Assembly: GCA_017431625.1 (NCBI GenBank)
Contig: JAFRKQ010000021.1
Location: 13,324 to 77,323, forward strand
DNA length: 64,000 nucleotides
Source of the DNA: a bacterium
Lineage (GTDB): Bacteria > Patescibacteriota > Microgenomatia > UBA1400 > PJMF01
Direction of reading: 5' to 3'
Part shown: positions 3,626-42,275 of the stretch, piece by piece
How the letters are laid out: every line of letters begins with the position of its first letter
Numbering within the stretch: position 1 is the stretch's first letter
Position numbers and translations under genes: made by a program
The notes under the pieces: generated by a model
The model's input: the letters and a program-made list of their open reading frames with translations, nothing else
The model's database searches: none
Told to the model about the DNA's origin: nothing

Positions 3626-3699
3626 GTCGCGGTACCAGAGTGGTCCAATGGCCGGGTCTGCAAAACCTTGGTTCGCGGGTTCGAATCCCGCCCGTGACT
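3626..3699 (+). tRNA. tRNA-Cys (anticodon GCA)
   Basis: Hand-folded. Acceptor stem GTCGCGG/CCGTGAC (7 bp including one G-U). T-arm GCGGG-TTCGAAT-CCCGC. Anticodon loop CTGCAAA with U33 and A37. No encoded CCA. The D-arm is short (3 bp). Confidence 0.75.
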
Positions 3700-3799
3700 C
3701 ACTAGTAAAATATTGTTGATGCAAGGGAATAATATTAGTAATTGAGGAAATTTTGTGAACAAAAACAAAACTAACCGCGATCCGCTCCATTCACAAAAA

Positions 3800-7995: not shown

Positions 7996-8999
7996 TTATT
8001 ACGCAAACTCCATTTCGGATGTCTTTTTTTGGCGGTGGAACTGACTTTCCCGAATTTTTTCGTGAGCATGGTGGCAGCGTAATATCGTCTACTTTTGATA
8101 AGTATGCATATGTAAACGTCCGCCATTTGCCGCCATTTTTTGATTATACTAGTGAAATATCTTATTCAAAACTAGAACGGGTAAAAAGTGTTAATGAGAT
8201 TGAGCATCCGGCAGTGCGTGAAACCATGAAATATCTAGATATGCATGATTTGCGTATCTCATATGAAGCTGATTTACCAGCACGTTCCGGCTTGGGGACA
8301 AGTAGCTCTTTTGTCGTGGGGATGTTACATGCTTTCTATGCGCTTAAAGGCAAATACGCAAGCAAAAAGCATTTAGCTGACGACGCAATTTATTTAGAAA
8401 GAGAACTGTGCAAAGAGACAGGCGGTATCCAAGACCAAATTGCTGTCAGTTTTGGCGGTTTTAACAGAATTAATTTTGATGTTAAAGGTTACAGTGTCAA
8501 TCCCATTATTATTTCTCCTAGTCGTTTGCAGCAGCTAAATGATTCCTTACTACTTTATTTCACTGGTTTTTCTCGTATTTCTGCTGATATTCAAGTGCAG
8601 ACACAAAAAAATCTCAAAAATAATACGAATACATTACTAGAAATGCTAGAATTAGTGGATGAAGCCGAAAAAATTCTTACTAGCAAAACGAATTTAGATG
8701 AATTTGGACGGCTGCTTGATTATACTTGGAAATTAAAACGCGGTTTGACGGATAAGGTTTCTACTGGTTGCATAGATGATATTTACGCTGAGGCACTCAA
8801 AGCCGGCGCTTTGGGAGGCAAACTCTTGGGAGCTGGCGGTGGTGGCTTCTTACTCTTTTATGTTGCACCAGAAAAGCATGCTCAAGTAAAAGAATGTTTG
8901 TCGCGTTTATTGTATGTGCCTTTTTGTTTTGAAACTGGTGGCACACGTGTTATTCACTACACGCCAGAAATTTATGATGATCGTGGAGAGGATAAGTAA
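7992..8999 (+). CDS. hddA: GHMP-family sugar kinase, D-glycero-D-manno-heptose 7-phosphate kinase (HddA-like)
   Basis: GHMP motif PARSGLGTSSSFVVGML. The N-terminus (MSFFGGGTDFPEFF) fits HddA. ATGA overlap with the upstream stop. Confidence 0.75.
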   Translation: MIITQTPFRMSFFGGGTDFPEFFREHGGSVISSTFDKYAYVNVRHLPPFFDYTSEISYSKLERVKSVNEIEHPAVRETMKYLDMHDLRISYEADLPARSGLGTSSSFVVGMLHAFYALKGKYASKKHLADDAIYLERELCKETGGIQDQIAVSFGGFNRINFDVKGYSVNPIIISPSRLQQLNDSLLLYFTGFSRISADIQVQTQKNLKNNTNTLLEMLELVDEAEKILTSKTNLDEFGRLLDYTWKLKRGLTDKVSTGCIDDIYAEALKAGALGGKLLGAGGGGFLLFYVAPEKHAQVKECLSRLLYVPFCFETGGTRVIHYTPEIYDDRGEDK

Positions 9000-10279
9000 T
9001 GAAAAAACCTCCTGCAGTAATCATGGCTGGTGGCAAAGGAACACGAATCGCAGCGATAAACGCAACTGTGCCTAAACCAATGATAGAGATTGCTGACAAA
9101 CCAATCTTGCAATATGAGTTGGAAGTGCTGTCGCGACAAGGCTATCGTGATGTTACTATTGTTACGGGACATCTCGGCCATGCAATCCAAGAATATTTTG
9201 GTGACGGCAGCAGTTTTGATTTGCAAATTAACTATCTGCACGAAAAAGAACCTTTAGGCACAGCGGGTGCGCTTTATTGGTTAAAAGGTAAAGTCTCTAC
9301 CGATTTCTTGTTGCTTAATGCGGATATTATTTTTGATGTCGATCTGGATCGTTTTTACCGTTATCACCAAGCACAAAAAACGACAGCGACGATTTTGACC
9401 CATCCTAACGCTCATCCCTATGACAGTGCAATTATTGCTGCAGACAAAAATAACATTGCAACTGCTTGGTTACATAAAGAAGACACACGACTCTGGTATC
9501 GCAACCGCGTCAATGCTGGGTTGCACTTTTTATCGCCTTCTGTTTTCGCGAGCTATAAAACTCTAGAAAAAAAAGACTTGGATCGAGATATTCTCAAACC
9601 ATTAATTGAAACCCACCAACTAAGTGTCTATGACTCTCCAGAATACGTCAAAGATATGGGTACGCCTGATCGCTATGAAAATGTAATCAAAGATCTACGC
9701 GATGGCTTAGTAGCAGCAAGAAATCTCAATCGGCGACAAAAAGCAATCTTTTTGGATCGTGACGGCACTTTAAATAAAGATGCTGGCTTTTTGACAAATA
9801 TTGACCAGCTGGAATTAATTCCTGGAGCGAGCGAAGCAGTAAAGTTAATTAATGATAGCGGTTACTTAGCAATTGTCGTCACCAATCAACCAGCAATAGC
9901 GCGTGGAGAATTAACTATTGCACAGTTGGATTTGATTCATCAAAAATTGGAAACTTTATTGGGGCAAGATGGCGCTTATCTTGACGCTATTTATTATTGC
10001 CCACATCATCCAGATAAAGGTTTTTCTGGAGAACGACCAGAATATAAAATTGAGTGTGAGTGTCGCAAACCAAAGCCAGGAATGCTGCTGCAAGCAGCTA
10101 GACATTTTAATATTGATTTGTCATCATCTTGGATGATTGGTGATAGTATTAAAGATATTGAAGCCGGAAAGGCAGTCAATTGTTACACTGCACTTTTGAG
10201 TAAAGAGCAAGCGAATATACAGCCAGATTTGTCGGCACGCGATTTATTGTCAGCAGTCAAAAAGATATTGGACAAATAG
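8999..10279 (+). CDS. Bifunctional heptose-1-phosphate nucleotidyltransferase (HddC-like) fused to D,D-heptose 1,7-bisphosphate phosphatase (GmhB, HAD family)
   Basis: N-terminal MAGGKGTRIA...GTAGALY nucleotidyltransferase. C-terminal AIFLDRDGTLN (HAD motif I) plus the Zn-finger signature CPHHPD...CECRKPKPGML typical of GmhB. Confidence 0.8.
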   Translation: MKKPPAVIMAGGKGTRIAAINATVPKPMIEIADKPILQYELEVLSRQGYRDVTIVTGHLGHAIQEYFGDGSSFDLQINYLHEKEPLGTAGALYWLKGKVSTDFLLLNADIIFDVDLDRFYRYHQAQKTTATILTHPNAHPYDSAIIAADKNNIATAWLHKEDTRLWYRNRVNAGLHFLSPSVFASYKTLEKKDLDRDILKPLIETHQLSVYDSPEYVKDMGTPDRYENVIKDLRDGLVAARNLNRRQKAIFLDRDGTLNKDAGFLTNIDQLELIPGASEAVKLINDSGYLAIVVTNQPAIARGELTIAQLDLIHQKLETLLGQDGAYLDAIYYCPHHPDKGFSGERPEYKIECECRKPKPGMLLQAARHFNIDLSSSWMIGDSIKDIEAGKAVNCYTALLSKEQANIQPDLSARDLLSAVKKILDK

Positions 10280-10282
10280 AAT

Positions 10283-10924
10283 ATGTCACAAAATAAATAT
10301 TTAGCTGAATTACTTATAAGATATCCGAGATTAGCGGCTTGCGAAAACAGTGTTTACCAAACATATCAAATGTTACTAGATAGTTTTGCCAATCAACATA
10401 AACTTCTTGTAGCTGGCAATGGGGGAAGTTGCGCTGACGCAGAGCATTTAGTGGGTGAATTGATGAAAGGCTTTTGTTTACCGCGACTTTTAGATGAACA
10501 ACAAAAGCAGAAGTTAATAAGCATTGATGATGAAATCGGTAAAACTTTAGGTAAAAAATTACAAGGTGCTCTTCCCACTCTCGCACTAACAAATCACAAT
10601 GCATTAAATACAGCTTATCTTAATGATGTTGATGGACTTTATATTTACGCGCAACAGGTTTACGGCTACGGCCAAGTTGGCGACGTCTTTTTGGGGATTA
10701 GCACTTCAGGCAATTCTAAAAACATCCTTAATGCAGCCGTAACGGCAAAAGCAAAACAGCTAAAAGTGATTGGTTTAACGGGGGAAAATGGTGGTAGATT
10801 AAAAGATTATTGTGATGTCTGTATCTGTGTGCCAGAAACGGAAACATTTAAAGTCCAAGAATTGCATTTGCCAGTTTATCATTGTTTAGCATTGATGTTG
10901 GAAGAGAAGTTTTTTGGAAAGTGA
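10283..10924 (+). CDS. gmhA: Sedoheptulose-7-phosphate isomerase (SIS domain)
   Basis: LVAGNGGSCADAEHLVGEL, ISTSGNS and QELHL motifs match the GmhA consensus. Confidence 0.85.
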   Translation: MSQNKYLAELLIRYPRLAACENSVYQTYQMLLDSFANQHKLLVAGNGGSCADAEHLVGELMKGFCLPRLLDEQQKQKLISIDDEIGKTLGKKLQGALPTLALTNHNALNTAYLNDVDGLYIYAQQVYGYGQVGDVFLGISTSGNSKNILNAAVTAKAKQLKVIGLTGENGGRLKDYCDVCICVPETETFKVQELHLPVYHCLALMLEEKFFGK

Positions 10925-10962
10925 TATGAAAAACCGAACGCTATGTACTCCAGGATCATAAT

Positions 10963-13809
10963 ATGCTAACACTTAAAAAGTTTTATTTGACACATTTTCT
11001 TAACAAAAAACAGATACGAGATTTGCTGGAATTCTTATCAGTTATACTTGCCATTAATATCCTAATAATTATCGGCGTGAAAAATGGGCTTTTTTTTCTA
11101 GAAAGTGGTGTACTCTATCGAGACGTCCCTGTTTATAAGTTTGCCGATAGTCTCAAAAGTGGCGACGATAGCGTAGAACAAGAGTTTATTCCTAAGATGC
11201 CAGGGCTTACGAGAATTGATATCAGATTGGCCTATGCAGGTAATATTGAGGATGATCATGCACAAGCACTTTTAACTTTAAGCGACGATGAGGGGAATAT
11301 TTTATCTGAACATATTGTTACTGGAGATAATTTTGAAAACTGGCGCTATTTTAGTATAGACGCTAGGGGCTTGCAATGTGGACACAAGTATGTCATCAAA
11401 ATGCAACAACAATCACAGAATTTGACTCCAGACGGCGATTTTGCAACTTCGTGGGCTCCTTTTGTTTATGAAGCCGATGAAATCCTATCCAAGGATAAAA
11501 CTTTTCCTCAAGAGAATCTCACTAGTTATTATAATCATGCAGTACGTAATTACCATTGGGACATTCATTATGTCTATGGAAGAACAGTTTATCTATATAT
11601 GCTTTTTATTGATATAATAGTGTTTAGCGTGTATATACTGGGGTCTATTTTTTTAAAACACATGGCTCTGCAAAAAAAGAAACAATGTTTAAATTCAGAT
11701 ATAAAAACGATCACAAATGCCATTTTGATTAGCAATTGCTTAGTGGCTAGTTATTTAATTTATGTTGTTTATGTTTGGTTTCTTGAGTTAGTAGATTTTG
11801 TTTGCTATTTTTTTCAGTGGCCGCAAGCGACACCAATTTCTCGCATTATGGTGGCTTCTTTTACTATGTTACTAGTCTTTTTCTGCAAAAGAAAGAAAGC
11901 GTTTATCGTGGGAAGGTTGTCCTTTAATTGGAAATTATTGCTGGCCATTGTATTTTTTATCCTGCTGAGTGCGACCAAAATTGTGTATCCAGATACTAGT
12001 GCGGATACCTTTAATTATCATTTATTGGCACAGCAGCCGGGATTTGTAAACTATTTTAAACAAGGTTTTGGCGCAGGGGGATTTCAGGTGTGGGGTTTCC
12101 GCCTTGGAGATCGTTTATATTATCCATTTCGAGTGTTGCTGGGGTATAGGTTGGGGACTGTTTTAAATACCATAGTTGTCATAATCATCTACTTACAACT
12201 AGTTCTTATTATGCAAACATTTACTAAGGACAATGTGCGAAAGTTCTGTTTGTCTCCTGAAATGTTTGCTTTACTTTTACTGGCCACGCAGTGGGACACT
12301 CTATTAATGATGGGCATATACTATGTGGATATTTTATCTATCCCTTTAATTTTGGAAGCATTTAGAATACTTGCTTCTCATGAAAATGAGAAAATAAATA
12401 CAACTAAAATAATTTACTTGTCTTTTCTACTGGGGTTTGCTTTTGCCTTCAAAATGACGAATATTGCATTTGTGTTACCATTGGGAATGGTTTTATTGGT
12501 AAAATCTTGGAAAAAAATTACGCCCGTTAGCTTTATTGTCGCCGGTCTTGCTTGTGTTTTACCGGTTAGTATTTATTTAATATTTAATTTTGTTTGTACA
12601 CGTAATCCAGTTTTCCCTTATTATAACAAGATTTTCCGATCTCCATATTTTAAGATCGCAAATTTTAAAGATAATAGATGGGGCGGGAGTGACACCAAGC
12701 AACAACTACTCTGGTTTTATCATATCGTAAAGCACCCAGAAAGCCGCGTTTCGGAAATTAATAATCCTAACACTACATTCATACTATTTTCACTATTTGC
12801 GTTCATTTTGCTACTTTCTTTGGTTGTATATTATCACTGGAGGAAGCGTTATACTTACAAATCATTCTTCACGTATATTGGCATGATTATATTTTCATAT
12901 TTGATTTGGACATTTTCAACTGGTTATCCGCGCTACTATATTGGCGGTTTTATATTATGGGGATTGGCAATTTATTTATGCCTTTATTTATTTTCCCAAA
13001 AAAATTTACTTGTAACTAATGTACTTAGTGTTATGTTCATTGTTGTTTCATTGCTAATTGCCAAAGACGAGGCGTGGACAGTTGTTGTCGCCGGTCATGA
13101 ATGGTCATGGCGTCAATTCTCTATGGCCACATACAAGATACAATTACCATTGATATTCCATGACAAAATATGGTATTTGCCTGATAATCAAGAATTTCCT
13201 GATAAATTTATTTTGACTGAGGCAACCACGGGGGACGTCGTTTTAGCTAACCCGCGGGCTTCTATCATAGCCTTATATTATCAACGTTGGCTGGATAATC
13301 AGGAAACTATAAACGATCTTCACAATAAAGCAAAACAAGCATTAAATTCGAGAGGATATATCATTTTAAGAAGTGCTAAGAATCTAAAAGCGATTATTGA
13401 CGAACTAAATAAGTATAGTTTATACTTAAATGATATACAGATGATATATACCAATCAGGCTCAGCGTTATTTAGGATTGGTAGAAAGACTTATGGATGCA
13501 ACCAACTCAGGCGAATTAGTTACAGATGATTTTCATACTACATTAAATATTAAACCAAACCGCAATAATGTAAATTTTATATATGTATGTATTACATCCA
13601 ATGAAGGAGGAAATTGCGATTATCATGTCACTCTATCTCAAGATAATGCAGTAGTTTATGAAGAAAATATTAATATAGGAAAAGATCAAACTGGAAAATT
13701 AGATATGAATATATCTGAAGAAGTGTCACCAGACACCCTAGACGTTTCTATTATGAACAATCGAGCTAATAGCTCTGGCAGTCAATTGGCAATCATCAAC
13801 TTGCACTAA
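10963..13809 (+). CDS. Large polytopic membrane protein (948 aa, >12 predicted TM helices plus a C-terminal soluble domain). Possible GT-C-type glycosyltransferase, oligosaccharyltransferase or polymerase
   Basis: ATG at 10963. Long hydrophobic helices throughout aa 200-700, then a hydrophilic ~250-aa C-terminal domain. AT-rich. No catalytic motif recognised, so the functional call is by context. Confidence 0.6.
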   Translation: MLTLKKFYLTHFLNKKQIRDLLEFLSVILAINILIIIGVKNGLFFLESGVLYRDVPVYKFADSLKSGDDSVEQEFIPKMPGLTRIDIRLAYAGNIEDDHAQALLTLSDDEGNILSEHIVTGDNFENWRYFSIDARGLQCGHKYVIKMQQQSQNLTPDGDFATSWAPFVYEADEILSKDKTFPQENLTSYYNHAVRNYHWDIHYVYGRTVYLYMLFIDIIVFSVYILGSIFLKHMALQKKKQCLNSDIKTITNAILISNCLVASYLIYVVYVWFLELVDFVCYFFQWPQATPISRIMVASFTMLLVFFCKRKKAFIVGRLSFNWKLLLAIVFFILLSATKIVYPDTSADTFNYHLLAQQPGFVNYFKQGFGAGGFQVWGFRLGDRLYYPFRVLLGYRLGTVLNTIVVIIIYLQLVLIMQTFTKDNVRKFCLSPEMFALLLLATQWDTLLMMGIYYVDILSIPLILEAFRILASHENEKINTTKIIYLSFLLGFAFAFKMTNIAFVLPLGMVLLVKSWKKITPVSFIVAGLACVLPVSIYLIFNFVCTRNPVFPYYNKIFRSPYFKIANFKDNRWGGSDTKQQLLWFYHIVKHPESRVSEINNPNTTFILFSLFAFILLLSLVVYYHWRKRYTYKSFFTYIGMIIFSYLIWTFSTGYPRYYIGGFILWGLAIYLCLYLFSQKNLLVTNVLSVMFIVVSLLIAKDEAWTVVVAGHEWSWRQFSMATYKIQLPLIFHDKIWYLPDNQEFPDKFILTEATTGDVVLANPRASIIALYYQRWLDNQETINDLHNKAKQALNSRGYIILRSAKNLKAIIDELNKYSLYLNDIQMIYTNQAQRYLGLVERLMDATNSGELVTDDFHTTLNIKPNRNNVNFIYVCITSNEGGNCDYHVTLSQDNAVVYEENINIGKDQTGKLDMNISEEVSPDTLDVSIMNNRANSSGSQLAIINLH

Positions 13810-14005
13810 GTAATTAAATCAACTAAAGATGTTCTGATTGTCCAGATAATGTAGGTTAAGTAAAATTTCGTGCAGGTTTTACTCTTGCAAAATATGAATT
13901 ATGTTATTATGCAAAACAGCAACCATCTTGTCCAAATTCAAATACTCACAAACTAACAGATAGATTAACAAATGGATTAACAAATATAAACACACTTCAT
14001 AGCTA

Positions 14006-14236
14006 TCACCGTTTTATTCTTTCAGTATAATTCTTAATGATGTCTTTTCCTCTTAATTCACATGATTGAATTAACATTTCTATCTTACTGGGTTCATCAA
14101 GATTGTTTAGATTTAATTCATCATATAAGTGTTTCACATTTTCTTTTAGTTTTTCTAATAGTTCTGGAGTCATAACTCTGATTGCTGAATTTGAAGCCTC
14201 CACGGCAGCCAGCAGTGGTGCTGTCGTAATCCCCAA
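14006..14236 (-). CDS. Small hypothetical helical protein (55-76 aa) in an AT-rich spacer
   Basis: ATG-initiated ORF with amphipathic-helix-like sequence (MTPELLEKLKENVKHLYDEL...). It overlaps an antisense ORF (14103..14477) whose first half looks non-coding. Confidence 0.3.
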   Translation of the reverse strand: MGITTAPLLAAVEASNSAIRVMTPELLEKLKENVKHLYDELNLNNLDEPSKIEMLIQSCELRGKDIIKNYTERIKR

Positions 14237-14481
14237 ACTTTTTTACCGAGGCTATATTGCTCGCGATGAAAGTCACAATACTTTCCCTATCGTCAATGGT
14301 GACAATAATTGTGCCGCCGTCCTGTTACCGGCCAACTATCATGGTATTATCACTGTAGAATACCAAAAAAGAAAAATCTGGATTTTGGGCGAATGGATAT
14401 CCGTCATCACTTTGTGTGTACTCATCAGCATCGCCGTTATCACATACTGCAACCAGCGACGCACACAAACATCATAAATTA

Positions 14482-14521
14482 CTGCCACTCCCCGCCATTT
14501 CTGGCAAAAATTCGCACTAAA
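14482..14521. repeat. R1 repeat, copy 1 (CTGCCACTCCCCGCCATTTCTGGCAAAAATTCGCACTAAA)
   Basis: About 88% identical 40-nt copy at 15809-15848. Copy 1 overlaps the -35 region of the downstream ATPase gene (TATAAT at 14536-14541). Confidence 0.8.
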
Positions 14522-14548
14522 TTGTTCATTTCCATGTTATAATAAGTT

Positions 14549-15799
14549 ATGCTCGAAATCAAACGTGACTACTATCTGCGCCAACTGATCGCCCAGCGTG
14601 GCTCTAGTTTCATCAAAATCATTACTGGCTTGCGCCGTGCCGGCAAATCCTACTTGCTCGATCCAATTTTTCGCCAATTCTTACTTCAAGATGGCGTCGC
14701 GCCGGATCATATCATTCACCTCAATTTGGAAGAGTTTGAAAACCGCTGCTTGCTTGACCCCTCCGCATTATTCACTTTTGTCAAAAAACAAATCGCCGAT
14801 AGTCAAACTTATTACGTGCTCCTCGATGAAATCCAACTTGTGCCCGGTTTCGAGTCCATTCTCTCCAGTTTTCTCCACCTAGACAATCTCGACGTTTACG
14901 TGACTGGCAGTAACTCACGTTTCTTGTCTTCAGACGTCATCACTCAATTTCGCGGCCGTGGCACCCAAATTCACCTGTATCCACTCAGCTTTGGCGAAAT
15001 TTATGCCGCCTTAGGCGGTGATAAATACGAGCTCTGGGAGCGTTATTACCGTTACGGTGGCTTGCCGCAAGTGGTCCAGCAGCCCGATGACCAAGCCCGG
15101 ATCTCCTTTTTAGAAGCACAAAAAGACAATGTTTATCTCAATGACTTAATAGAACGTTATCGTATCCGCAATAGTGACAGTCTGGGTATCCTCAGTAGTG
15201 TCATCGCTTCAGACGTGGGTGCGCTCACCAACCCCCACAAACTCGAGCGCACCTTCAAAAGCAAAATTGGTGTCGACCTAAGCTACCACAAAATCGAGGA
15301 TTATTTAGAAAAACTCCAAAACGCTTTTTTAATCGAAAAATCTAAACGTTTTGACGTCAAAGGCAAACGTTATATTGATACTCCGGTAAAATACTACTTT
15401 ACTGATCCCGGCATTCGCAACGCTTTCGTTGATTTCCGCCAAACAGAAGAATCTCATCTGATGGAAAATATTATCTATAATGAACTCCGCCGCCGCGGAT
15501 TCAAAGTCGATGTCGGCACGGTCGAAACCAGAGGGGAAAATGGCACTCGCCAACAATTAGAGGTGGATTTTGTCGCGAGAAAGGCCGATAATACATATTA
15601 TATTCAATCAGCCCTCACGATCGGTGATAGTGCCAAAAGATACCAAGAATCACGCTCGCTAGATCACATTAATGATCACTTCAGCAAGATCATCATCGCC
15701 AAAGATACTTTTGCTCCCGGCCACGAGCGCAACGGCATTGCTACCATCGGTCTTTTTGGCTTTTTACTCGATGACAAAATCCTAGATAAATATCAATAG
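14549..15799 (+). CDS. AAA+ ATPase of the COG1373 / AAA_14 + DUF4143 family (paralog 1)
   Basis: Walker A GLRRAGKSYLL. Walker B YVLLDEIQ. The length and C-terminal half are consistent with DUF4143-type proteins. ATG at 14549 with TTATAAT 7 nt upstream. Confidence 0.7.
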   Translation: MLEIKRDYYLRQLIAQRGSSFIKIITGLRRAGKSYLLDPIFRQFLLQDGVAPDHIIHLNLEEFENRCLLDPSALFTFVKKQIADSQTYYVLLDEIQLVPGFESILSSFLHLDNLDVYVTGSNSRFLSSDVITQFRGRGTQIHLYPLSFGEIYAALGGDKYELWERYYRYGGLPQVVQQPDDQARISFLEAQKDNVYLNDLIERYRIRNSDSLGILSSVIASDVGALTNPHKLERTFKSKIGVDLSYHKIEDYLEKLQNAFLIEKSKRFDVKGKRYIDTPVKYYFTDPGIRNAFVDFRQTEESHLMENIIYNELRRRGFKVDVGTVETRGENGTRQQLEVDFVARKADNTYYIQSALTIGDSAKRYQESRSLDHINDHFSKIIIAKDTFAPGHERNGIATIGLFGFLLDDKILDKYQ

Positions 15800-15808
15800 T
15801 GTCACTCT

Positions 15809-15848
15809 ACTGCCAATTTCCGCCATTTTTGGCAAAAATTCGCACTAA
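15809..15848. repeat. R1 repeat, copy 2
   Basis: Direct repeat of 14482-14521, beginning 10 nt after the stop of ATPase paralog 1. Confidence 0.8.
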
Positions 15849-16049
15849 ACCAACCAGAAATAATCTAAACAGGTTCAAACACATTTCGGAATAAAAATTT
15901 GGGTTAAGTAAAAAAAACGTGGAGGTTTTTTGCATGGCTTTTAGCGGTGTATACGTAAAATTGGCATTATTTTGCACTTTTTGAGTGCTAAAATACACCA
16001 ATTGCGACCAAGAAGTAGGCAACACCAAATCTGTGTTGCACTCCCACTT

Positions 16050-16140
16050 AACCCCACATTTCGTGAAAAAACAGCCAAAATTAACTTTACATTTCGTGAT
16101 ATTTTGCCAAAAATTAAGCTTACATTTCGTGAAAAAACAC
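16050..16140. repeat. R2 array A: three tandem 33-bp units with core TTACATTTCGTGA, immediately upstream of a TTGACA -35 element
   Basis: ACATTTCGTG at 16056, 16089 and 16122 (period exactly 33 bp). Inter-core sequence is semi-conserved (GCCAAAAATTAA). TTGACA at 16141. Confidence 0.85.
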
Positions 16141-16192
16141 TTGACAATTATTCTAATAGTGATCTAATCACTAAGAAAGGTTGAAAACTATT

Positions 16193-17545
16193 ATGAAAAG
16201 GCTTATCTACGATCAGCTGCTTGAGTGGAAAAACACTGATCAAGGTCGGCACGCTGTATTAATTGAAGGCGCGCGACGTGTTGGCAAAAGTTACATTACC
16301 AATGATTTTGGCAATGACAATTACGCTTCTTACCTCACAATCGACTTTTCGGCCACTACCGATGAAATCCGTGATCTTTTTTATAACTATCTTGATCACC
16401 TTGACGATTTTTTTCACCTGCTGACCAATTATTATCAAGTTAAACTTTTTCATCGCCAGTCACTGATTATTTTTGATGAAGTTCAACATTTTCCTCGTGC
16501 CCGCGAGGCCATAAAGCGCCTTGTTGCTGACGGACGCTATGATTACATCGAAACTGGCTCCTTGATTTCCATCAAACAAAACGTCAAAGACATCCTCATA
16601 CCGTCTGAAGAAAGAAAACTAACTATGAGGCCCATGAATTTTCAAGAATTTTGCTTGGCGACCAATAATCAAATGCTTTGGGAATATATCTGCGATTGTT
16701 TCGCACAAAAAAAATCTCTGACACCACCAATGCATCGACGTGCCATGAATGTTTTTCGCCAATACCTAATTGTTGGTGGCCTGCCTCAAGCAGTAGCTGC
16801 TTTTATTAAATCTCAAGATTATACCCTAGTAGACCACGAAAAAAGAGCTATTCTTGATCTTTATCGCAATGATATTAGCAAATTTAGCGATTCAATTCGT
16901 TTTAAGGTAGAAAAAATTTTTGACGATATTCCCTCTCAACTTCAGCGACATGAAAAAAAATTTAATTTGGCCGACATTGATTACAATGCTCGCTTGCGAG
17001 AATATGACGATGCCTTTTATTGGTTGCTTGATGCAGGTTTGATCAATATTGCTTATAATACCACCGAACCAAATTTGGGTCTCAATCTTGCAAAAGATGA
17101 CCGGTATTTCAAGTGTTATCTGTTTGATACAGGTTTACTTTTAGCTATGACTTTTAATGAAAAAGAAATTGCCCGCGAAGAAATATACAAAAAGATTCTT
17201 TTCAACAAACTCGAATTTAACCAAGGCATGATTATGGAAAACCTTATCGCCCAAATGTTACGCTCAAGCGGACATCATCTTTTCTTTTATGTCAAACATG
17301 ATCGTGGTGATAATAATGAAAACATGGAGGTTGATTTTCTTTTGTCTAAAAATGTTATCACCAATAAGCACAATATTATCCCGATCGAGGTCAAAACTGG
17401 TGTTAGATACACTTACAAATCACTGCGCAAATTCTCTCAAAAATATCAGCAATTTGTCACCAAACCAATTATTATTCACCAAAATGATTTGCAAATTGAC
17501 AATGGCATTCTCTATTTGCCCGCTTACATGGCCGAGTTGCTTTAA
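16193..17545 (+). CDS. AAA+ ATPase of the COG1373 / AAA_14 + DUF4143 family (paralog 2)
   Basis: Walker A GARRVGKSYIT. Walker B IIFDEVQ. SD-like AAGAAAGG 12 nt before the ATG at 16193. The ORF track starts at TTG 16181. Confidence 0.7.
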   Translation: MKRLIYDQLLEWKNTDQGRHAVLIEGARRVGKSYITNDFGNDNYASYLTIDFSATTDEIRDLFYNYLDHLDDFFHLLTNYYQVKLFHRQSLIIFDEVQHFPRAREAIKRLVADGRYDYIETGSLISIKQNVKDILIPSEERKLTMRPMNFQEFCLATNNQMLWEYICDCFAQKKSLTPPMHRRAMNVFRQYLIVGGLPQAVAAFIKSQDYTLVDHEKRAILDLYRNDISKFSDSIRFKVEKIFDDIPSQLQRHEKKFNLADIDYNARLREYDDAFYWLLDAGLINIAYNTTEPNLGLNLAKDDRYFKCYLFDTGLLLAMTFNEKEIAREEIYKKILFNKLEFNQGMIMENLIAQMLRSSGHHLFFYVKHDRGDNNENMEVDFLLSKNVITNKHNIIPIEVKTGVRYTYKSLRKFSQKYQQFVTKPIIIHQNDLQIDNGILYLPAYMAELL

Positions 17546-17554
17546 TTGATCACT

Positions 17555-17650
17555 AACTCTACATTTCGTGAAAAAACAGCCAAAATTAACTTTACATTTC
17601 GTGTGAATTTACTCAAAATTAATCTTGCATTTAGTGAGAAATACTGTAGT
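17555..17650. repeat. R2 array B: three tandem 33-bp units (ACATTTCGTG x2, GCATTTAGTG), direct orientation relative to array A
   Basis: Cores at 17561, 17594 and 17627. Begins 16 nt after the ATPase-2 stop. The first 50 nt are nearly identical to array A. Confidence 0.85.
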
Positions 17651-17799
17651 TTTAAGACATCAAGTCAGCGACTGATAATTTTCACCAATATGCCAAATTG
17701 TCCAGCAGTCAACCGAATTGAGTTTCCGCTAGCTATTCCCAAACTTTGGCAAATTCGCCATTAATTTGGAATTGACTTTAGTGACAAAATTAACTTTGG

Positions 17800-18395
17800 A
17801 TATTATGAAGCTCCCCGACCTAACGGTCGGGGTTTCTTATCCCATTTCAAACCTTGATCTCGTTCGCTCGAGCAAGCTCGCTCACTCAAACAAGGTTTGC
17901 CCTGAATCCTTTTTGCCCTGATCCTCAATGTACCTCTTTATTATCGCTTCATTATTTCCAATGGTTGTCACAAAATACCCGTCAGACCAAATTCCATCTG
18001 TTCCCCAGTATATCTGTTTTAGCATGGGGAATTTTCGCTTGATCTCCTTCGACGTATTCGATTTAATAATGCCTACAACTTTCCCAACACTCATTGTTGG
18101 CGAAATCGAAACTAAATAGTGTATGTGGTCTTGATCATGATTCACCTTTAAAAATTTAATTTGAGGATAATGACTAGTTATTTCCGCCAACTTTAATTCA
18201 AAATAAGCGAAAATTCCATCATTGATAATTTTACGTCGGTATTTTGTGACCGTGACTAAATGGTACTCACACTCATAAACGCAATGTGACAGATGTGTTA
18301 GTGGCATCAAGATATTATACCACGGTTCCAGAGTGCAAAAACAGATTCAGGGTGCCAGCACGGCCTTACGGCCGGAATTATGGCATGGCGATATA
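17800..18395 (-). mobile_element. IS200/IS605-family insertion sequence (tnpA only) with subterminal hairpins
   Basis: Hairpins CCCCGACC-TAAC-GGTCGGGG (17811-17832) and CGGCC-TTAC-GGCCG (18353-18366) bracket the tnpA ORF. Confidence 0.7.
17882..18310 (-). CDS. tnpA: IS200-like Y1 (HUH) transposase TnpA
   Basis: 142 aa. Has the HVH-type motif (DHIHYLVSI) and the C-terminal Y...K region typical of IS200 TnpA. Confidence 0.8.
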   Translation of the reverse strand: MMPLTHLSHCVYECEYHLVTVTKYRRKIINDGIFAYFELKLAEITSHYPQIKFLKVNHDQDHIHYLVSISPTMSVGKVVGIIKSNTSKEIKRKFPMLKQIYWGTDGIWSDGYFVTTIGNNEAIIKRYIEDQGKKDSGQTLFE

Positions 18396-18404
18396 AAACG
18401 ATCT

Positions 18405-19130
18405 TTATTGAGTTAAAGTTAGCGTTTCGCCTAGAACAAAGCCAGAACCATTATAATGAGGATCACTGGTACCTTCAAAAAACACTTGAATAAACTCTGA
18501 ACCACCAATCATTTGTAAAGATCGGTTGTCTTTAACCTTAAAAACCAAATTACCAGTCACTGACTGTGACACCATATGGCTATTGCTAAATGTGAAGCCA
18601 TCAGGGTTTAGCTCGCCTTCATACCAAAAAGTGGTATTAATATAGCACGACACCTGTTCATCATTAACTGTAAAATTACCGCTATAATGCACACCTTCAC
18701 CAATATAAGACTCAAAAGTACCATCATTGTGAAATTCAATGTAATTATTATATGGACCTGCACAACCATCATAGTTATCTGAATCCTCAAAGCACTTGCA
18801 ATGACGGCCATTGTCAACAACAGGAGATCCTCCCATACAGTACGACTCTCCCAGATATTTTCCCACAATAAAATTGCTTGCCGCCGGCTTTGTGTCTGAT
18901 GAAGTCACATTGGTAACAATGGTGGTTTCTACTGGGGCTTGTTCGTCATTTGCCCCGCCACTGGTGGTCACTTGAGAGACGCTACTGGTCTCTGGCACCG
19001 ATGGCAGCGTCAAGGCAGGATTATTGTGGCTATTACGCAGCGAGAAAGCAATCGCCGCCAAGGCCACCAGAATCCCCGCGCCTATAGCAATGCCCATCAT
19101 TTGTATGATAGTGTTGTTGTTTTTTTGCAT
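18405..19130 (-). CDS. Hypothetical membrane-anchored, Cys-containing extracytoplasmic protein
   Basis: N-terminal TM anchor (GIAIGAGILVALAAIAF), then a Ser/Thr-rich linker and a Cys-containing domain. Confidence 0.55.
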   Translation of the reverse strand: MQKNNNTIIQMMGIAIGAGILVALAAIAFSLRNSHNNPALTLPSVPETSSVSQVTTSGGANDEQAPVETTIVTNVTSSDTKPAASNFIVGKYLGESYCMGGSPVVDNGRHCKCFEDSDNYDGCAGPYNNYIEFHNDGTFESYIGEGVHYSGNFTVNDEQVSCYINTTFWYEGELNPDGFTFSNSHMVSQSVTGNLVFKVKDNRSLQMIGGSEFIQVFFEGTSDPHYNGSGFVLGETLTLTQ

Positions 19131-19332
19131 AATTATAAACTATATCTTGTCCAATTGTTGTATTACAAACGAGATCTATCTCACTCGTTCACAATGAGCA
19201 TATTGTATCATAAAAATGTGTTTTGTCAATAGCTACTAATTATTATGTCCACTGCGGAGCTCCGCAATTTTCGTATGTAGACAAAATATGTACAATTGGT
19301 ATTTTTTGTTAAACGCTTACCTCTGGTTTTTC

Positions 19333-19375
19333 GTAACAAAAATGACCCTTTTGTTTCAGGGCCATTTTTATTTTT
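19333..19375 (-). terminator. Rho-independent-type hairpin downstream of dnaK
   Basis: ATGACCCT / AGGGCCAT stem with T-runs on both sides, 20-60 nt past the dnaK stop. Confidence 0.45.
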
Positions 19376-19393
19376 GCTGTCAGACGTTGCTGT

Positions 19394-21301
19394 TTAGTTC
19401 ACGACCTCACCTTCGACGACATTATCACTGCTTTTGTCCTCAGTTTTCTTGTCGTCTGCCTTGTTGGTCGTTGTATCCGCTTGCTTTTCGGCTTGGGCTT
19501 TTTGCATCGCCTCACCGATTTTTTGCGCACTCTTCATCGTGTCTTCGATCGCTTTTTCCAATTCCTCTTTGGTGGTGGAGTCAGACTCAGACAACTTCTT
19601 GAGAGCCTCAACATTATCGGCGATCGCTTTGCGGTCAGCTTCCTCGAGCTTGTCACCATAGTCTTTGAGCTGTTTCTCCATCTCAAAGGCAACACTTGAA
19701 GCTTGATTTTTGGCTTCAATCAGCTCTTTTTTGGCCTTATCTTCCTCAGCGTGCATTTCCGCCTCTTTTTTCATCTTTTCCACCTCTTCATCAGAGAGAT
19801 TGGTCGAGTTGGAAATGGTGATATTGGCCTCTTTGCCGCTGGTGCGATCTTTGGCTGAGACTTTGAGGATACCGTTGGAGTCAATATCAAAAGTGACTTC
19901 CACTTGCGGGATCCCGCGTGGCGCTGGGGGAATGCCCGAAAGGACAAACCGACCCAAAGACTTGTTGTCCGCCGCCATTTCGCGCTCACCCTGAAGCACA
20001 TTAATCTCAACACTGGTTTGATTATCAGCGGCCGTTGAGAAGACCTGATTGCCACTAGTGGGGATAGTCGTATTACGTTTGATAATCGGTGTGCGAATGC
20101 CACCCAGAGTCTCCACACCCAGAGTCAGAGGCGTGACATCAAGCAAAACGACATCTTGGACATCACCGCCAATGACGCCTGCCTGCACAGCCGCACCAAT
20201 GGCCACCACTTCATCAGGGTTGACTCCTTGCTCAGGTTTCTTGCCAAAGAATTTTTCCACCTCGGCTACCACCTTGGGCATACGGGTCATACCGCCCACG
20301 AGAACGACATTGGCGATCTCGCTAGCCTTGAGTTTGGCGTCTTTCAAAGCCGCTTCCACCGGCTTGAAAGTCCGCTGGATCAGTTCATCAGTAAGCTCTT
20401 CCAACTTGGCACGAGTGAGTGTCATCGTCAAGTGTAGGGGAGTACCCTCATCTGACTGAGTAATGAAGGGAAGGTTGATCTCAGTACTCATAGTCGCTGA
20501 CAACTCAATCTTGGCCTTTTCTGCCGCGTCTTTGACCCGTTGGAGGGCTTGTGGATCTTTGCTTAAGTCCTTACCATTGTCTTTTTTGAACTCGTCCACG
20601 ATCCACTCAATGATCTTGTTGTCAAAGTCATCACCGCCAAGGAAAGTATCGCCATTGGTGGATTTGACTTCAAAAACGCCATCGCCAATTTCGAGAATGG
20701 AGATATCAAAAGTACCGCCACCAAGGTCATAGACAGCAATTTTACTATTGCCTTTTTTGTCAAGACCATAGGCCAAAGCAGCCGCTGTTGGTTCATTGAC
20801 GATCCGCTCCACCTTGAGACCAGCAATCTCACCGGCTTGTTTGGTCGCTTGACGTTGCGAGTCATCAAAATAAGCTGGCACGGTAATAACTGCCCGATCG
20901 ACGCTACCACCCAAATAGGCTTCAGCATCTGCCTTAGCTTTTTGCAAAATCTTGGCGGAAATTTCTTGTGGAGTTAGTTTGTCGCCCTCAATTTCCAAAA
21001 CAGCCATGCCGTCTTTACCGGAGGCCACATCATAAGCAACGTGCTTGAGCGCGTTTTGCACTGGCTTAGCATTATACTTTTGCCCCATAAAACGTTTGAC
21101 GGAATTGACCGTGTTTTTGGGATTGAGCACCATCTGCCGCTTGGCCGCATCACCCACCGCCGTTTCACCTTTTTTAAAACTTACAATTGAGGGGAAGGTA
21201 TTGCGCCCTTCAGCTGTGGGGATAATCTTGGCGTGACCGCCTTCCATGACAGCAACGGCTGAGTTAGTCGTGCCCAAATCGATTCCAATTATTTTTGACA
21301 T
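19394..21301 (-). CDS. dnaK: Molecular chaperone DnaK (Hsp70)
   Basis: [18 protein letters not shown] and the full-length Hsp70 architecture. Confidence 0.97.
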
Positions 21302-21397
21302 AATATTTTTTCCTTTCTAGCTATCACACCACCATTATAATAGTATATTGTTGTTTAGTCAACGTGCTATTAACAACGTGGTTAATTGATATTAGCA

Positions 21398-21441
21398 ATT
21401 CTAGCAGAAGACTGCTAATTTGTCAAGAGGCAATTTCCAGG
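21398..21441 (-). promoter_or_regulatory. dnaK promoter: conserved element GCCTGGAAATTGCCTC, then TTGACA, N16, TAGAAT
   Basis: Reverse complement of 21419-21441 reads GCCTGGAAATTGCCTCTTGACAA. The same 23-mer occurs at 45564-45586 and, split, at 53543-53595. Confidence 0.6.
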
Positions 21442-21480
21442 CAAAAAGTCAATTCCTCACAAATTGCCTGCCCCAAAACC

Positions 21481-21496
21481 ACACTTGTGTGGTATA
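21481..21496 (+). promoter_or_regulatory. secD promoter, extended -10 (TTGTGTGGTATACT)
   Basis: TGTGGTATACT lies 16 nt upstream of the ATG at 21513. Confidence 0.5.
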
Positions 21497-21512
21497 CTCA
21501 GGCGTATTGATT

Positions 21513-22871
21513 ATGTGGAAAAAGAGTAAACTTGTTCGTGACTATTTTATTGTTTTAGGTGTGGTTTTGATCGCTTTTTTTATTGCCCTGCCTAGCACCT
21601 TTAGTCTCAATGTCGCTGGACGAGAGATTAATTTTGCCAAAAGCCGCGCCTTGCCCAGTTTTTTTGGCCGCCGGCTCACTTTTGACTTCCCGCTCAAGCT
21701 CGGCCTTGATATCGCTGGTGGTGTCCAGTTGACTCTCAACGCTGATATGAGCCAGATTGCCTCAGAAGATCGCCTCGCCGCCTTGCAAGCCGCTGTAGAA
21801 ATTGTCCGCCAACGTGTCGATGCTTATGGTCTTAATGAGCCAATAATTCAAACCTCCACCAGTGGCGATCAGTATCGGATCATTGTGGAAATTCCCGGAC
21901 TTGACGATGTCGATCAAGCCGTCGCTTTAATTGGTACTACAGCCCAGCTCGACTTTCGCCTACAAAACAGTGAGGCAACCATGGCCGCTACGCTTGACGA
22001 TTTGTTTACACCCACAGGTCTTGATGGCTCAATGCTTGAGCGCGCGCTCGCCACTGTCGATACCAATACCCGCCAGCAAGTAGTGCAGCTCCAATTTTCT
22101 GACGAGGGGCAAAAACTTTTTGGTGATCTCACCAGTCAGCACATTGGTGACACCCTAGCGATCTTCATCGATGGCTATCCGATCATGTTGCCTACTATTA
22201 ATAGTGCCATTTTGGACGGTAGCGCGGTTATTACTGGCAGTTTTACCAGCGAGCAGGCGCGAGCCTTAGCCATCCAGCTCAACTCTGGGGCTTTGCCCGT
22301 ACCGCTCACGATCTTATCACAATCGCAAGTGGGTGCCAGTCTAGGCGAGGACAGCGTCCGCGCCAGCGTTTTTGCGGGCATTGTGGGTTTGGTATTGATT
22401 GCCATCTTTATGGTGCTCAACTACGGCCTCAAGGGTCTGCTGGCCGATACCTGTCTAGCGATCTATTGTTTGATTATCATTGCGGTCTACAAAGTTTTTG
22501 GCGTCACTATGACCCTGCCCGCAATTGCTGCGGTGATGATTTCTATGGGCATGGCCGTTGACTCCAATATTTTGGTTTTTTCGCGCATGAAAGAAGAGGA
22601 GCTTTTAGGACGCACCCGCTCGCAAGCGCGCGAACTAAGTTTTGGCCGGGCTATGGATAGTATCAAGGATGCCAACTTCATCACCCTGATGATTGCCCTG
22701 ATTCTCATCAATCCGCTTGATTTGGCTTTTCTCAATAGCTCAGGCACGATCAGGGGCTTTGGTATGACGCTATTTTTGGGCGTGATTGTGGGACTTTTTA
22801 CTGGCATTTTTGTGACGCGGACTCTGACTCGTGTTTTTATCCGCGATCCCCAAGAAAGTGAGCGCTCATGA
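21513..22871 (+). CDS. secD: Protein translocase subunit SecD
   Basis: Periplasmic domain plus a C-terminal 6-TM region with conserved SecD motifs (LDIAGG, SMGMAVDSNILVF). The ORF track start at 21420 is a TTG inside the promoter, so the ATG at 21513 is preferred. Confidence 0.9.
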   Translation: MWKKSKLVRDYFIVLGVVLIAFFIALPSTFSLNVAGREINFAKSRALPSFFGRRLTFDFPLKLGLDIAGGVQLTLNADMSQIASEDRLAALQAAVEIVRQRVDAYGLNEPIIQTSTSGDQYRIIVEIPGLDDVDQAVALIGTTAQLDFRLQNSEATMAATLDDLFTPTGLDGSMLERALATVDTNTRQQVVQLQFSDEGQKLFGDLTSQHIGDTLAIFIDGYPIMLPTINSAILDGSAVITGSFTSEQARALAIQLNSGALPVPLTILSQSQVGASLGEDSVRASVFAGIVGLVLIAIFMVLNYGLKGLLADTCLAIYCLIIIAVYKVFGVTMTLPAIAAVMISMGMAVDSNILVFSRMKEEELLGRTRSQARELSFGRAMDSIKDANFITLMIALILINPLDLAFLNSSGTIRGFGMTLFLGVIVGLFTGIFVTRTLTRVFIRDPQESERS

Positions 22872-24255: not shown

Positions 24256-24346
24256 ACAAAAACCCCATTTTTGTCACCAAAAACCAGATGTGCGCGTTTA
24301 ACACGCGTTTAACAAAATTTACTTATTGTACACATTTTGTGAACAA
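24256..24346. repeat. ~90-nt intergenic repeat element, copy 1 (contains tandem CGCGTTTAACA x2)
   Basis: Aligns over ~90 nt with 55707-55797 (CATTTTTGTCACCAAAAACCAGA...GTTTAACACGCGTTTAACAAAA...TTGTACA-ATTTTGT). Confidence 0.8.
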
Positions 24347-24372
24347 TTAAAACCCATCGCGAGACAATGAAA

Positions 24373-41300: not shown

Positions 41301-42219
41301 AATGTATATCCTTATTAGCAGGGCCGTCCTTGGTAATGACGCCATCGCGCAGCACTATCGTCCGGTCGCTATAAGAGGCCACCGCCGGCTCGTGGGTAAT
41401 GATCACAATAGTTTTGCCGTGTTCACGATTGAGTTTGGTAAAAAAGCTCAACACCTCATCAGTCTGATCAGTAGGCAAATTGCCCGTTGGCTCATCAGCC
41501 AAGACAATAGCTGGATCCATCATCAAACTCCTAGCGATCGCCACCCGCTGTTGTTGGCCACCAGAAAGCTGACAAGCCAAATGGTCACAACGATTGTCAA
41601 GTCGCACCAGACCCACCAATTCGCGCGCTTTGTCTTGTCGCTGCCGCATCGGGATCTTACCATAAATTCCCGGTAACATCACATTTTCCAAAACAGTTTT
41701 TTGCGCCAACAAATTGAAGGCCTGAAAAACAAAACCAATTTTACGCCCGCGCACAGCCGCCAACTCATCCTCAGAGTAGTCTTTAATATCAATGCCATCC
41801 AGCCGATACAAGCCACTTGTTGGTGTGTCCAAAACACCCAAAATATGCATCAGAGTTGATTTGCCCGAACCAGAAGGTCCCATAATAGAAACAAATTCTC
41901 CCTCGTGAACAGTGAAATTGATGCCTTTAAGCACTCGTGTCTCGCCGGCTTGACCATAATAAGTCTTCACTAAATCTTTAACCTCAATCACCACCTTATC
42001 TTTTACTTGAGGACCAAAACTCGAGCGAGCAACTTTGGAGTCGGCGGCCAGCATTGTATCAGTTGTCATCGACTTTTGATAAGCGCACAATGTTCGGTGA
42101 GTAGCTAAATCTTTCTGGCAATTAACCTGGTCATAGACTTGAACATTATTGTTCAATTGCTTATTTTTTTCGCTAGTATTTTTTACTGATTTTTCATCCA
42201 TTTTCTTTAATATGTTCAC
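41287..42219 (-). CDS. ABC transporter ATP-binding protein (MacB/LolD-type) with an ~70-aa N-terminal extension
   Basis: Walker [13 protein letters not shown] signature [15 protein letters not shown]. Walker [12 protein letters not shown]. Confidence 0.88.
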
Positions 42220-42224
42220 ATTTC

Positions 42225-42275
42225 ATCTATTTTTTGTTCACATTTTGACTACATTTTTGTATACATTTTGTACTC
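42225..42275 (-). promoter_or_regulatory. Phased direct repeats AAAATGT(A/G) (11/11/22-bp spacing) upstream of the ABC ATPase gene. Candidate OmpR-family response-regulator operator
   Basis: Minus strand reads gtacAAAATGTAtacAAAAATGTAgtcAAAATGTGAac...AAATGTGAAc. Confidence 0.4.

Follow-up and report, generated by a model that had tools for sequence, protein, structure and literature searches.

The three tandem 33-bp units lying upstream of the ATPase-2 gene form an array that is conserved before related genes in many phyla; it is a feature of the gene family and not of a single locus. Array and gene are associated in this family, the units stand on a fixed 33-bp lattice, and bases of the array covary with residues of the encoded protein. 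We regard it as probable that the adjacent ATPase-nuclease has its cognate sites in the 33-bp units, which would most likely serve the autoregulation of its gene and the assembly of an oligomer. The array studied here is located in a stretch of 64,000 nucleotides of contig JAFRKQ010000021.1, from a bacterium of the Patescibacteriota; this whole stretch is referred to below as the window, and the features of interest are given in Table 1.

Table 1. Features identified around the ATPase-1 and ATPase-2 genes of the window
Feature	Position	Strand	Details and basis
42-nt element, copy a	14480-14521	+	Contains GCCA-N4-TGGC; upstream of ATPase-1
ATPase-1	14549-15799	+	416 aa; very divergent AAA_14 + DUF4143 subfamily; Pfam, PADLOC PDC-S01
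42-nt element, copy b	15808-15849	+	90% identical; 9 nt after ATPase-1 stop codon
Upstream array	16049-16139	+	Three 33-bp units; sequence, repeat and motif searches
Upstream cores	16054-16066 (CCACATTTCGTGA), 16087-16099, 16120-16132 (TTACATTTCGTGA)	+	
TTGACA, -35-like hexamer	16141-16146	+	Immediately 3' of third unit; read from sequence
Palindrome TAGTGAT-CTA-ATCACTA	16157-16173	.	Perfect; between -35-like hexamer and ribosome-binding site
Possible extended -10, TGaTCTAAT	16160-16168		16-nt spacer from TTGACA; poor element
ATPase-2	16193-17545	+	450 aa; AAA_14 + helical region + DUF4143; Pfam, PADLOC, AlphaFold2, covariation
Downstream array copy	17554-17641	+	9 nt 3' of ATPase-2 stop codon; repeat search
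IS200/IS605-type element	17813-18310	-	Y1 transposase gene 17882-18310; G+C-rich hairpin 17813-17832

The upstream array of the window is the local form of the family motif AAAAATCTTGAWWWCGTGTAAAAT, with TTTACAWTTCGTG as the core of this lineage. A search with the 13-mer TTACATTTCGTGA, allowing up to two mismatches, returned six matches in the 64 kb, against 2.2 ± 1.5 expected from shuffled sequences; these fall into two groups (16054, 16087 and 16120; 17559, 17592 and 17625), within which the spacing is exactly 33 bp. They are the same sites that a preliminary description of this DNA had reported as three units of 33-bp period on each side of the gene, with position numbers that start at the third base of the 13-mer. 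The upstream repeat was placed at 16048-16139 by Tandem Repeats Finder (TRF; period 33, 2.8 copies, score 107). A family array was defined as two or more AAAAATCTTGAWWWCGTGTAAAAT units, 32-35 bp apart on the coding strand and no further than approximately 260 nt upstream of the start codon, and the units of period 33 upstream of ATPase-2 form such an array. The third unit is followed directly by the -35-like hexamer, as had been noted before. A consensus promoter scan did not call the pair formed by this hexamer and the possible extended -10 element (16141-16168), and the palindrome is the only stable hairpin in an RNA fold of 16040-16195. Two ORFs that had been put down to the repeats as artefacts (15972-16184 and 17546-17764) had no Pfam match, in agreement with that interpretation.

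The distribution of the array was surveyed at 80 loci out of more than 598 genome loci of GTDB species genomes, encoding relatives of 49-61% identity, and on a few metagenome contigs. The sampled loci belong to Clostridia, Bacilli, Bacteroidales, Spirochaetes, Lentisphaeria, Kiritimatiellae, Proteobacteria and others. According to TRF, 51 of 84 loci have a repeat of period 33 or 34 in the 300 nt that precede the start codon; on the downstream side, one locus of 83 has a repeat of period 33. Self-similarity, a measure that does not depend on TRF, gave a best lag of 33, 34, 66 or 67 for the 200 nt upstream of the gene in 67 of 83 loci; downstream, the best lag was 33 in 6 of 82. The consensus AAAAATCTTGAWWWCGTGTAAAAT was obtained with an iteratively built weight matrix, and the core of the unit is two-part: a TCTTGA-like half, then CGTG. 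Neighbouring sites are 33 bp apart in 106 of 129 cases and 34 bp apart in a further 14, with three being the commonest copy number per locus, while the spacers between cores are conserved in length and variable in sequence between loci. When both strands of 1.14 Mb (loci and window) were scanned for sites that occur at least in pairs, 32-35 bp apart, 82 arrays were found, 79 of them directly upstream of a family gene; the remaining three are the downstream copy of the window and two arrays elsewhere. The sensitivity of the weight matrix is circular, as it was trained on the same upstream regions, but the scarcity of arrays outside the upstream regions of family genes is still a fair test of specificity. 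About 95% of loci carry a single array, upstream only, and this is also the arrangement in the three next-closest relatives after that of contig L003 (P0003, P0006 and P0007).

Metagenomes were also scanned, using the pattern ACAWTTCGTG-N23-ACAWTTCGTG. This returned 69 loci, nine of which are arrays directly before family genes, and a second group lies before a more distant family member, with the pattern matching the other strand; no further locus with arrays on both sides was found among the 69. The other loci are unrelated: they include coding repeats, satellite-like arrays on contigs without long ORFs (whose accessions resemble those of termite-gut samples, which we take them to be) and others. 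For viral contigs, the pattern of three TTCGTG at 33 bp was too loose, with 78 of 80 loci being unrelated and mostly 11-codon-like coding repeats, and a stricter repeat pattern gave no matches in these contigs.

Covariation between protein and DNA was assessed by comparing every column of the protein alignment with every variable position of the motif across 75 non-identical loci. The conserved strand LYFYS(N/K/R) is immediately followed by residue 369 (ATPase-2 numbering). Tyr occupies this place in 17 loci, and these are exactly the loci with G at position 10 of the motif, the base that follows CTTG. The agreement is therefore 75 of 75 loci, with the second-best protein column reaching 65 of 75. 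On a simple neighbour-joining tree built without residues 358-379, the Tyr369 state and the G10 state each require seven parsimony changes, and this correlation on 75 related sequences points to about seven independent switches. Several Tyr lineages are nearer to non-Tyr proteins than to any other Tyr group, as in L007 (78% identity to a non-Tyr protein, 74% to the nearest Tyr protein), L036 (69% and 65%) and L050 (63% and 59%). The core of the L022 type, a Tyr369 member, is CTAGGAAACGTG, and that of one Ser369 member is CTTGAWWWCGTG.

A second pair was identified beside the first: R or K at residue 371 goes with G at position 9, which adjoins position 10, in 69 of 75 loci. This rule is broken in the window and in L003, a JGI metagenome contig encoding a protein 65% identical to ATPase-2, both of which have R371 with C at position 9. 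The covarying residues are adjacent in the protein and the covarying bases adjacent in the DNA, and in the AlphaFold2 model residues 369-371 belong to the loop that joins strands 1 and 2 of the nuclease core, a short way ahead of D381. The held-out loci L154-156 and L179 fit the rule, as do L159 and L160 if the left half of the core is taken as the anchor. Cores of relatives at about 40% identity have a spacer longer by 1 nt and do not align for the 369/371 rule. Such covariation would be hard to explain otherwise than by the protein contacting the left half of the core.

The array stands in tight register with promoters of different types. In both the window and L003 it ends at TTGACA, and L003 has TTGACA-17-TATAAT where the window has its TTGACA. 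The last cores of L004 lie inside a TTGCAA-17-TATAAT promoter, so at all three loci the array abuts or overlaps the -35/-10 elements, and in several Firmicutes the last core continues into a TATAAT box. Bacteroidota promoters have a different consensus, with TAnnTTTG at -7. This box was found at +18 from the first site in 10 loci, with the GTGTA of the core running into it, and at -13 to -15 relative to the first site in six loci, a register that places most units between promoter and start codon. The tight register with promoters of such different types fits an operator, and the array would most likely act as one by occlusion or roadblock, that is, in autorepression. At L018, two tandem paralogs have a common 117-nt terminator-and-promoter module and different arrays, which fits arrays that are specific to their own protein.

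ATPase-2, a member of the candidate defence family PDC-S01, is predicted to be a fusion of an AAA+ ATPase with a nuclease domain of the PD-(D/E)xK type. Its AAA_14 (PF13173) and DUF4143 (PF13635) matches are both above the Pfam cut-offs, accompanied by a weak AAA_22 match, and the PADLOC profile for PDC-S01 (PDLC04786, E 7e-104) covers residues 1-449; an NCBIfam search with the protein gave no match, to a Rep or initiator family or to any other. Across 120 relatives there is no variation in the Walker A motif (GARRVGKS), the Walker B pair (D95-E96) or the catalytic positions of the nuclease, D381 and E399-V-K401. The ORC1/Cdc6, MalT, NB-ARC and DnaA ATPases oligomerise, with ORC/Cdc6, DnaA and MalT doing so on repeated DNA sites. 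Proteins of these groups were retrieved when the AlphaFold2 model of ATPase-2 (pLDDT 76, pTM 0.79; low confidence at 232-269) was searched with Foldseek: the top PDB matches were ORC1, Cdc6/Orc1 in a structure bound to origin DNA, MalT, NB-ARC, DnaA and clamp loaders (among them 7jk6_A, 2qby_B, 1fnn_A, 8bob_C and 2hcb_B; 10-14% identity), all of them weak (E about 1e-4, TM 0.2-0.4). A winged-helix domain is suggested by these weak full-length matches. DUF4143 (COG1373) belongs to the list of the PD-(D/E)xK superfamily (PMC3424549). PDC-S01 has been reported to rank fourth in frequency among the defence candidates of prokaryotes, its copies numbering tens of thousands (PMC12988326), and a survey of horizontal transfer in the gut includes COG1373 in the gene families that genera co-share (PMC10782964). 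Relatives were found on IMG/VR contigs and in plasmid records, annotated there only as 'AAA family ATPase' or 'ATP-binding protein'. Within the limited library searched, the literature on DUF4143, COG1373 and PDC-S01, including a guilt-by-embedding preprint, leaves repeats unmentioned.

As the motif follows the gene through phyla without common regulators, the encoded protein is the obvious candidate for its reader, and the covariation of Tyr369 with G10 and of R/K371 with G9 makes it the most likely one. It is proposed that the nuclease-domain loop of residues 369-371 reads the left half of the core. With 33 bp being about three helical turns, three head-to-tail units would hold three protomers on nearly one face of the DNA, lined up in such a way that their AAA+ domains could contact one another, and the array would probably template an AAA+ oligomer. 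Since the array is locked onto the gene's own promoter, it would most likely serve in the autoregulation, probably autorepression, of a potentially toxic nuclease. If the nuclease domain, which is catalytically intact, contacts the array, cleavage in place of simple repression is possible. The binding of the protein to the array, the assembly of the oligomer and the direction of regulation are what we infer. The preliminary description had seen in the repeats phased cooperative sites beside a promoter, and this stands, the 33-bp phasing being conserved in the family; it had also named a partition protein or recombinase as typical binders of such sites, and neither is encoded in the unit.

Comparison with known systems places the array as follows. 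The likeness to PDC-S01 consists of full-length profile matches of both ATPases and of the AAA_14 + DUF4143 architecture. PDC-S01 is known only from gene-neighbourhood statistics, and the papers found mention no cis element; to this the present analysis adds the conserved 3 x 33-bp array and the way it covaries with the protein. Iterons of plasmids serve autoregulation, and they resemble the array in having direct cores of fixed phase beside the gene of the inferred binder, overlapping its promoter. The name 'iteron-like' given in the preliminary description thus holds as an analogy for tandem direct repeats. Iterons are defined by a Rep initiator and an origin. No Rep-family protein is encoded beside the array, and no origin features were recognised at the locus, which lies in a low-GC island of the chromosome; the arrays are chromosomal and occur in many phyla, and the presumed reader is an AAA+ ATPase-nuclease. 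Orc1/Cdc6, DnaA and MalT, in which several ATP-bound protomers are lined up by repeated sites, provide the best structural matches, albeit weak, and the proposed mode is alike. These proteins are without a nuclease domain, whereas the presumed base-reading residues of ATPase-2 lie in the nuclease domain and not in a winged helix. ORB elements of archaeal-type Orc1/Cdc6 origins are inverted around an unwinding region, in contrast to the units of both arrays, which all have one orientation; most relatives have just one array, adjoining the start codon. McrBC-type restriction systems likewise combine an AAA+ NTPase with a PD-(D/E)xK nuclease and recognise short DNA elements; here both activities would reside in one polypeptide, and the promoter of the gene itself contains the putative sites, which are not confined to foreign DNA. 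Most likely, the array is of the operator or iteron-like kind and is read by the protein that the gene beside it encodes, with the unusual features being its reader, a loop of an AAA+ protein's nuclease domain, and the abundance of the family.

The two arrays of the window form an 88-nt direct repeat (16049-16136 and 17554-17641) with 86% identity and an exact stretch of 43 nt. Units 1 and 2 of the downstream copy are nearly identical to those upstream, and its third unit (TTGCATTTAGTGA) is degenerate. Neither a promoter nor a gene remnant was identified after the downstream array, tblastn returned no ATPase remnant there, and ATPase-2 has no terminator. In the 1.14-Mb array scan this copy is the only array downstream of a family gene. 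Arrays on each side of ATPase-2, as first described, are indeed present here; in the family they are an exception, limited to two of about 95 related loci, the window and L003. The repeat in L003 is 91 nt long with 96% identity, a tRNA-Leu gene follows its downstream array, and the L003 and window loci are not syntenic; the downstream copies of both begin about 10 nt after the stop codon. Copies within a locus are 86-96% identical, including the non-conserved spacers, and the arrays of the window and L003 differ in their spacers. As spacers agree within loci and differ between them, the duplication would be recent and recurrent, or the copies homogenised by gene conversion. The downstream array is outside the general design and is most likely a by-product of recombination at the edges of a cassette consisting of array, promoter and gene. 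Possibly, a second array could provide a roadblock after a gene without a terminator, or looping between two sets of operators.

Similar edges were identified around ATPase-1. This protein, encoded in tandem with ATPase-2, also matches PDC-S01 over its full length (PDLC04787, E 2e-113), and the similarity between the two is confined to 36% identity over 42 aa. The 42-nt element flanks its gene with the same geometry as the arrays of ATPase-2. In 9 of 18 relatives of the ATPase-1 subfamily, a 20-25-nt element is present as two direct copies flanking the promoter, 60-70 nt apart. Direct repeats of 27-117 nt bracketing promoter, array and gene were found at about 11 of 80 other loci; that of Segatella buccae (L058) is a 93-nt, 97%-identical copy of the lon upstream region. 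Flanking repeats and duplicated arrays together suggest that array, promoter and gene behave as a cassette with recombination-prone edges. The presence/absence polymorphism of L148, L142 and L149 versus L088 is an internal deletion of 1129 nt in which the array is retained.

Both ATPases are located in a low-GC island at about 4-18 kb of the window (34-42% G+C, 45-49% elsewhere), which starts after tRNA-Cys (3626-3700) and ends near the IS200-type transposase gene (17882-18310). The IS200/IS605-type element adjoins the downstream array, and its Y1 transposase gene is the only mobility gene near the unit. No integrase was identified among the nine proteins scanned (8999-22871). An integron cassette with attC was considered and rejected, the flanking elements being direct rather than inverted repeats and the nine proteins including no integrase.

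These observations bear on a different reading, in which the arrays are recombination or cleavage sites that mobilise the cassette. The nuclease would cut, repair would duplicate, move or delete the cassette, and arrays on both sides would be the two junctions of one event. It is consistent with this that the covarying loop sits in a nuclease domain retaining D381 and E399-x-K401, that a repeat begins about 10 nt after the stop codon in three cases (ATPase-2, ATPase-1 and L003), that duplicated copies within a locus agree even in their spacers, and that direct repeats surround the cassette at about one locus in seven, such as L058. The cross-phylum spread of the family at 50-60% identity, its presence on IMG/VR contigs and plasmids, and the position of the window copy in a low-GC island adjoining a tRNA gene point the same way. 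However, since about 95% of loci have one array, upstream only, two ends are not the general design; the arrays are direct and not inverted, the unit is without a transposase or integrase, and some of the flanking repeats are promoter modules common to tandem paralogs (L018). Furthermore, no empty site or circular form of the cassette was found among the loci examined, and the only presence/absence polymorphism encountered (L148 versus L088) keeps the array. We consider mobilisation through the arrays unlikely, and it is rather unlikely that the nuclease itself causes the recombination at the cassette edges. A broader proposal, by which PDC-S01 is a sequence-specific AAA+ nuclease whose own array represses its gene and holds a poised, ATP-controlled oligomer on the chromosome, with cuts or nicks in the array driving duplication, deletion and spread of the cassette across phyla, appears doubtful as a whole.

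Other readings leave the encoded protein out of account or assign it a different role. The units could be stacked promoter elements (-35, extended -10, UP-like) or a repeated 5' leader acting as RNA: cores often run into -10-like boxes (cgTGaTATAAT in L004, L083, L050 and L067), the promoter scan calls TTTACA-17-AAAAAT inside the window array, and the Bacteroidota array, being mostly between the -7 box and the start codon, is probably transcribed. Yet the core is common to Bacteroidota, with their distinct promoter consensus, and to other phyla, for which promoter function alone is insufficient. In the window and L003 the array is upstream of the -35 element and would hence be outside the mRNA; the RNA fold is no better than that of shuffled sequences (z = -1.16), an Rfam search gave no match, and the covariation with two residues of the encoded protein would be left unexplained. 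This reading is improbable. Still less credence can be given to a host OmpR-type response regulator that binds the arrays as well as AAATGTA repeats before the efflux ABC gene, as the preliminary description had proposed for the regulator encoded at 44761-45450 and a shared site at 42225-42275. Direct repeats are typical of OmpR/PhoB-type sites, and the reverse complement of the core does contain AAATGTA, which is present twice at 42250-42268. The heptamer is nonetheless not enriched: the window has 15 copies where 13.1 ± 3.5 would be expected, a number that 32 of 100 shuffles also reach. The repeat at 42213-42278, ACATTTTG, recurs every 11-12 bp and is without CGTG. The array, moreover, follows the ATPase gene across phyla without common regulators and covaries with the ATPase itself. 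Very improbable, too, is that the Orc1/Cdc6-like ATPase is an initiator for which the arrays are true iterons or origin boxes, in a replicon or an integrated element. Repeats beside an initiator gene are the usual layout of an origin, and the weak Foldseek matches include ORC1, origin-bound Cdc6/Orc1 and DnaA. Against an origin, Rep and initiator families gave no match to ATPase-2, which contains a nuclease domain, the repeats are direct and mostly form a single short array between promoter and start codon, and no AT-rich unwinding region was identified beside the arrays. Many genomes have these loci at ordinary places in the chromosome, often with several paralogs, and the change of GC skew in the window follows the borders of the low-GC island and not the array.

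Autoregulation by the encoded ATPase-nuclease, the preferred reading, would provide a first mechanistic lead on a very common but uncharacterised candidate defence gene, for which the papers found describe no mechanism (PMC12988326). The array constitutes a defined DNA ligand for binding, structural and cleavage assays, and the rule linking residues to bases can be tested as a swap of specificity. It also gives a handle on whether these genes are autoregulated defence nucleases or selfish cassettes, and it can be used in annotation, where it marks the 5' end and the subfamily of genes poorly named 'ATP-binding protein'. If the proposed reading is true, this would be an unusual PD-(D/E)xK domain that reads the operator of its own gene. 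If self-cutting were true as well, a common 'defence' gene would be a self-targeting, self-mobilising element, or an abortive-infection switch acting on its own promoter.

Between the TTGACA hexamer and the ribosome-binding site of ATPase-2, the AAA_14 + DUF4143 ATPase-nuclease gene that follows the 33-bp array, lies a perfect palindrome, which might serve as an additional operator or form a hairpin in the leader (the positions of this and other features of the window are listed in the table). A weak gapped repeat was also detected, with one copy at 13816-13890, 3' of the gene for a 948-aa protein, and the other at 15858-15935, 3' of the second copy of the 42-nt element described below. Both copies contain core-like pieces (AAATTTCGTG and AAAAACGTGG) and resemble array units of an older date that have decayed.

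Repeats and mobile-element features of the window (positions in nt)
Feature	Position	Remarks
Perfect palindrome TAGTGAT-CTA-ATCACTA	16157-16173	Between TTGACA and the ATPase-2 ribosome-binding site
42-nt direct repeat	14480-14521; 15808-15849	Copies bracket ATPase-1; 90% identity between copies
Dispersed TTGTACAnATTTTGTGAACAA-type motif	3735-3762; 24256-24352; 42256-42280; 55708-55804; 57259-57283	Repeat families D2, D15, D18
TTTGTCAAGAGGCAATTTCCA-like element	21345-21445; 45541-45589; 53325-53355; 53532-53562	Five copies; repeat families D1, D6, D7
IS200/IS605-type Y1 transposase gene	17882-18310	Minus strand
G+C-rich hairpin of the IS200/IS605-type element	17813-17832	

ATPase-1, the divergent tandem neighbour of ATPase-2, is bracketed by a 42-nt direct repeat that includes the motif GCCA-N4-TGGC. 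Among the viral contigs L184-L202, a 20-25-nt element occurs twice in direct orientation in many relatives of ATPase-1, once on each side of the promoter, and the best repeat lag of the ATPase-1 relatives is 60-70 nt in nine of eighteen cases. This lag is about twice that of the 33-bp lattice. A different repeat of 33-bp period, TTCCGACT...ATTTCGTGCAG, was found on several IMG/VR contigs (L213, L217, L223, L233, L243, L261 and L282) and may be coding or part of another gene family.

The preliminary description had linked the repeats upstream of the efflux ABC gene to the ATPase array through a shared heptamer; these repeats belong not to the array but to the dispersed TTGTACAnATTTTGTGAACAA-type motif, which includes a 97-nt repeat pair of 84% identity (24256-24352 and 55708-55804). 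Among the TTTGTCAAGAGGCAATTTCCA-like elements, one pair is 49 nt long with 80% identity, and one copy is located directly 5' of a SecD-like gene at 21420.

Both ATPase genes are located in a low-GC island (4001-18000; 34-42% G+C versus 45-49% elsewhere in the window), together with sugar-nucleotide genes and the 948-aa protein, which is without a Pfam match. One border of this island directly follows a tRNA-Cys gene (3626-3700) and the other is near dnaK and the IS200/IS605-type element (17813-18310), which begins approximately 170 nt past the downstream array. The island was probably acquired horizontally.

Metagenome contig L001 is 99.97% identical to the window and then passes into unrelated GC-rich sequence from inside the 3' end of ATPase-2 (L001 3350-3479, after window position 17474), resulting in a product of 465 aa; this switch is probably an assembly chimera. 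Locus L088 (6761-7889) and loci L148, L142 and L149 are strain variants with 98% identical flanks, separated by a 1129-nt deletion in which the larger part of a more distantly related ATPase of the family is lost from the start codon inward, despite which its 33-bp array is retained. Locus L018 (2850-4700) encodes two tandem AAA_14/DUF4143 paralogs, each preceded by a 117-nt terminator-and-promoter module (85% identical), although their tandem arrays differ. In Segatella buccae ATCC 33574 (L058, 2690-4490), the array and ATPase unit lies between 93-nt direct repeats of 97% identity. As the right-hand copy adjoins lon on its upstream side, the unit resembles an inserted segment, with the region upstream of lon duplicated in the process.
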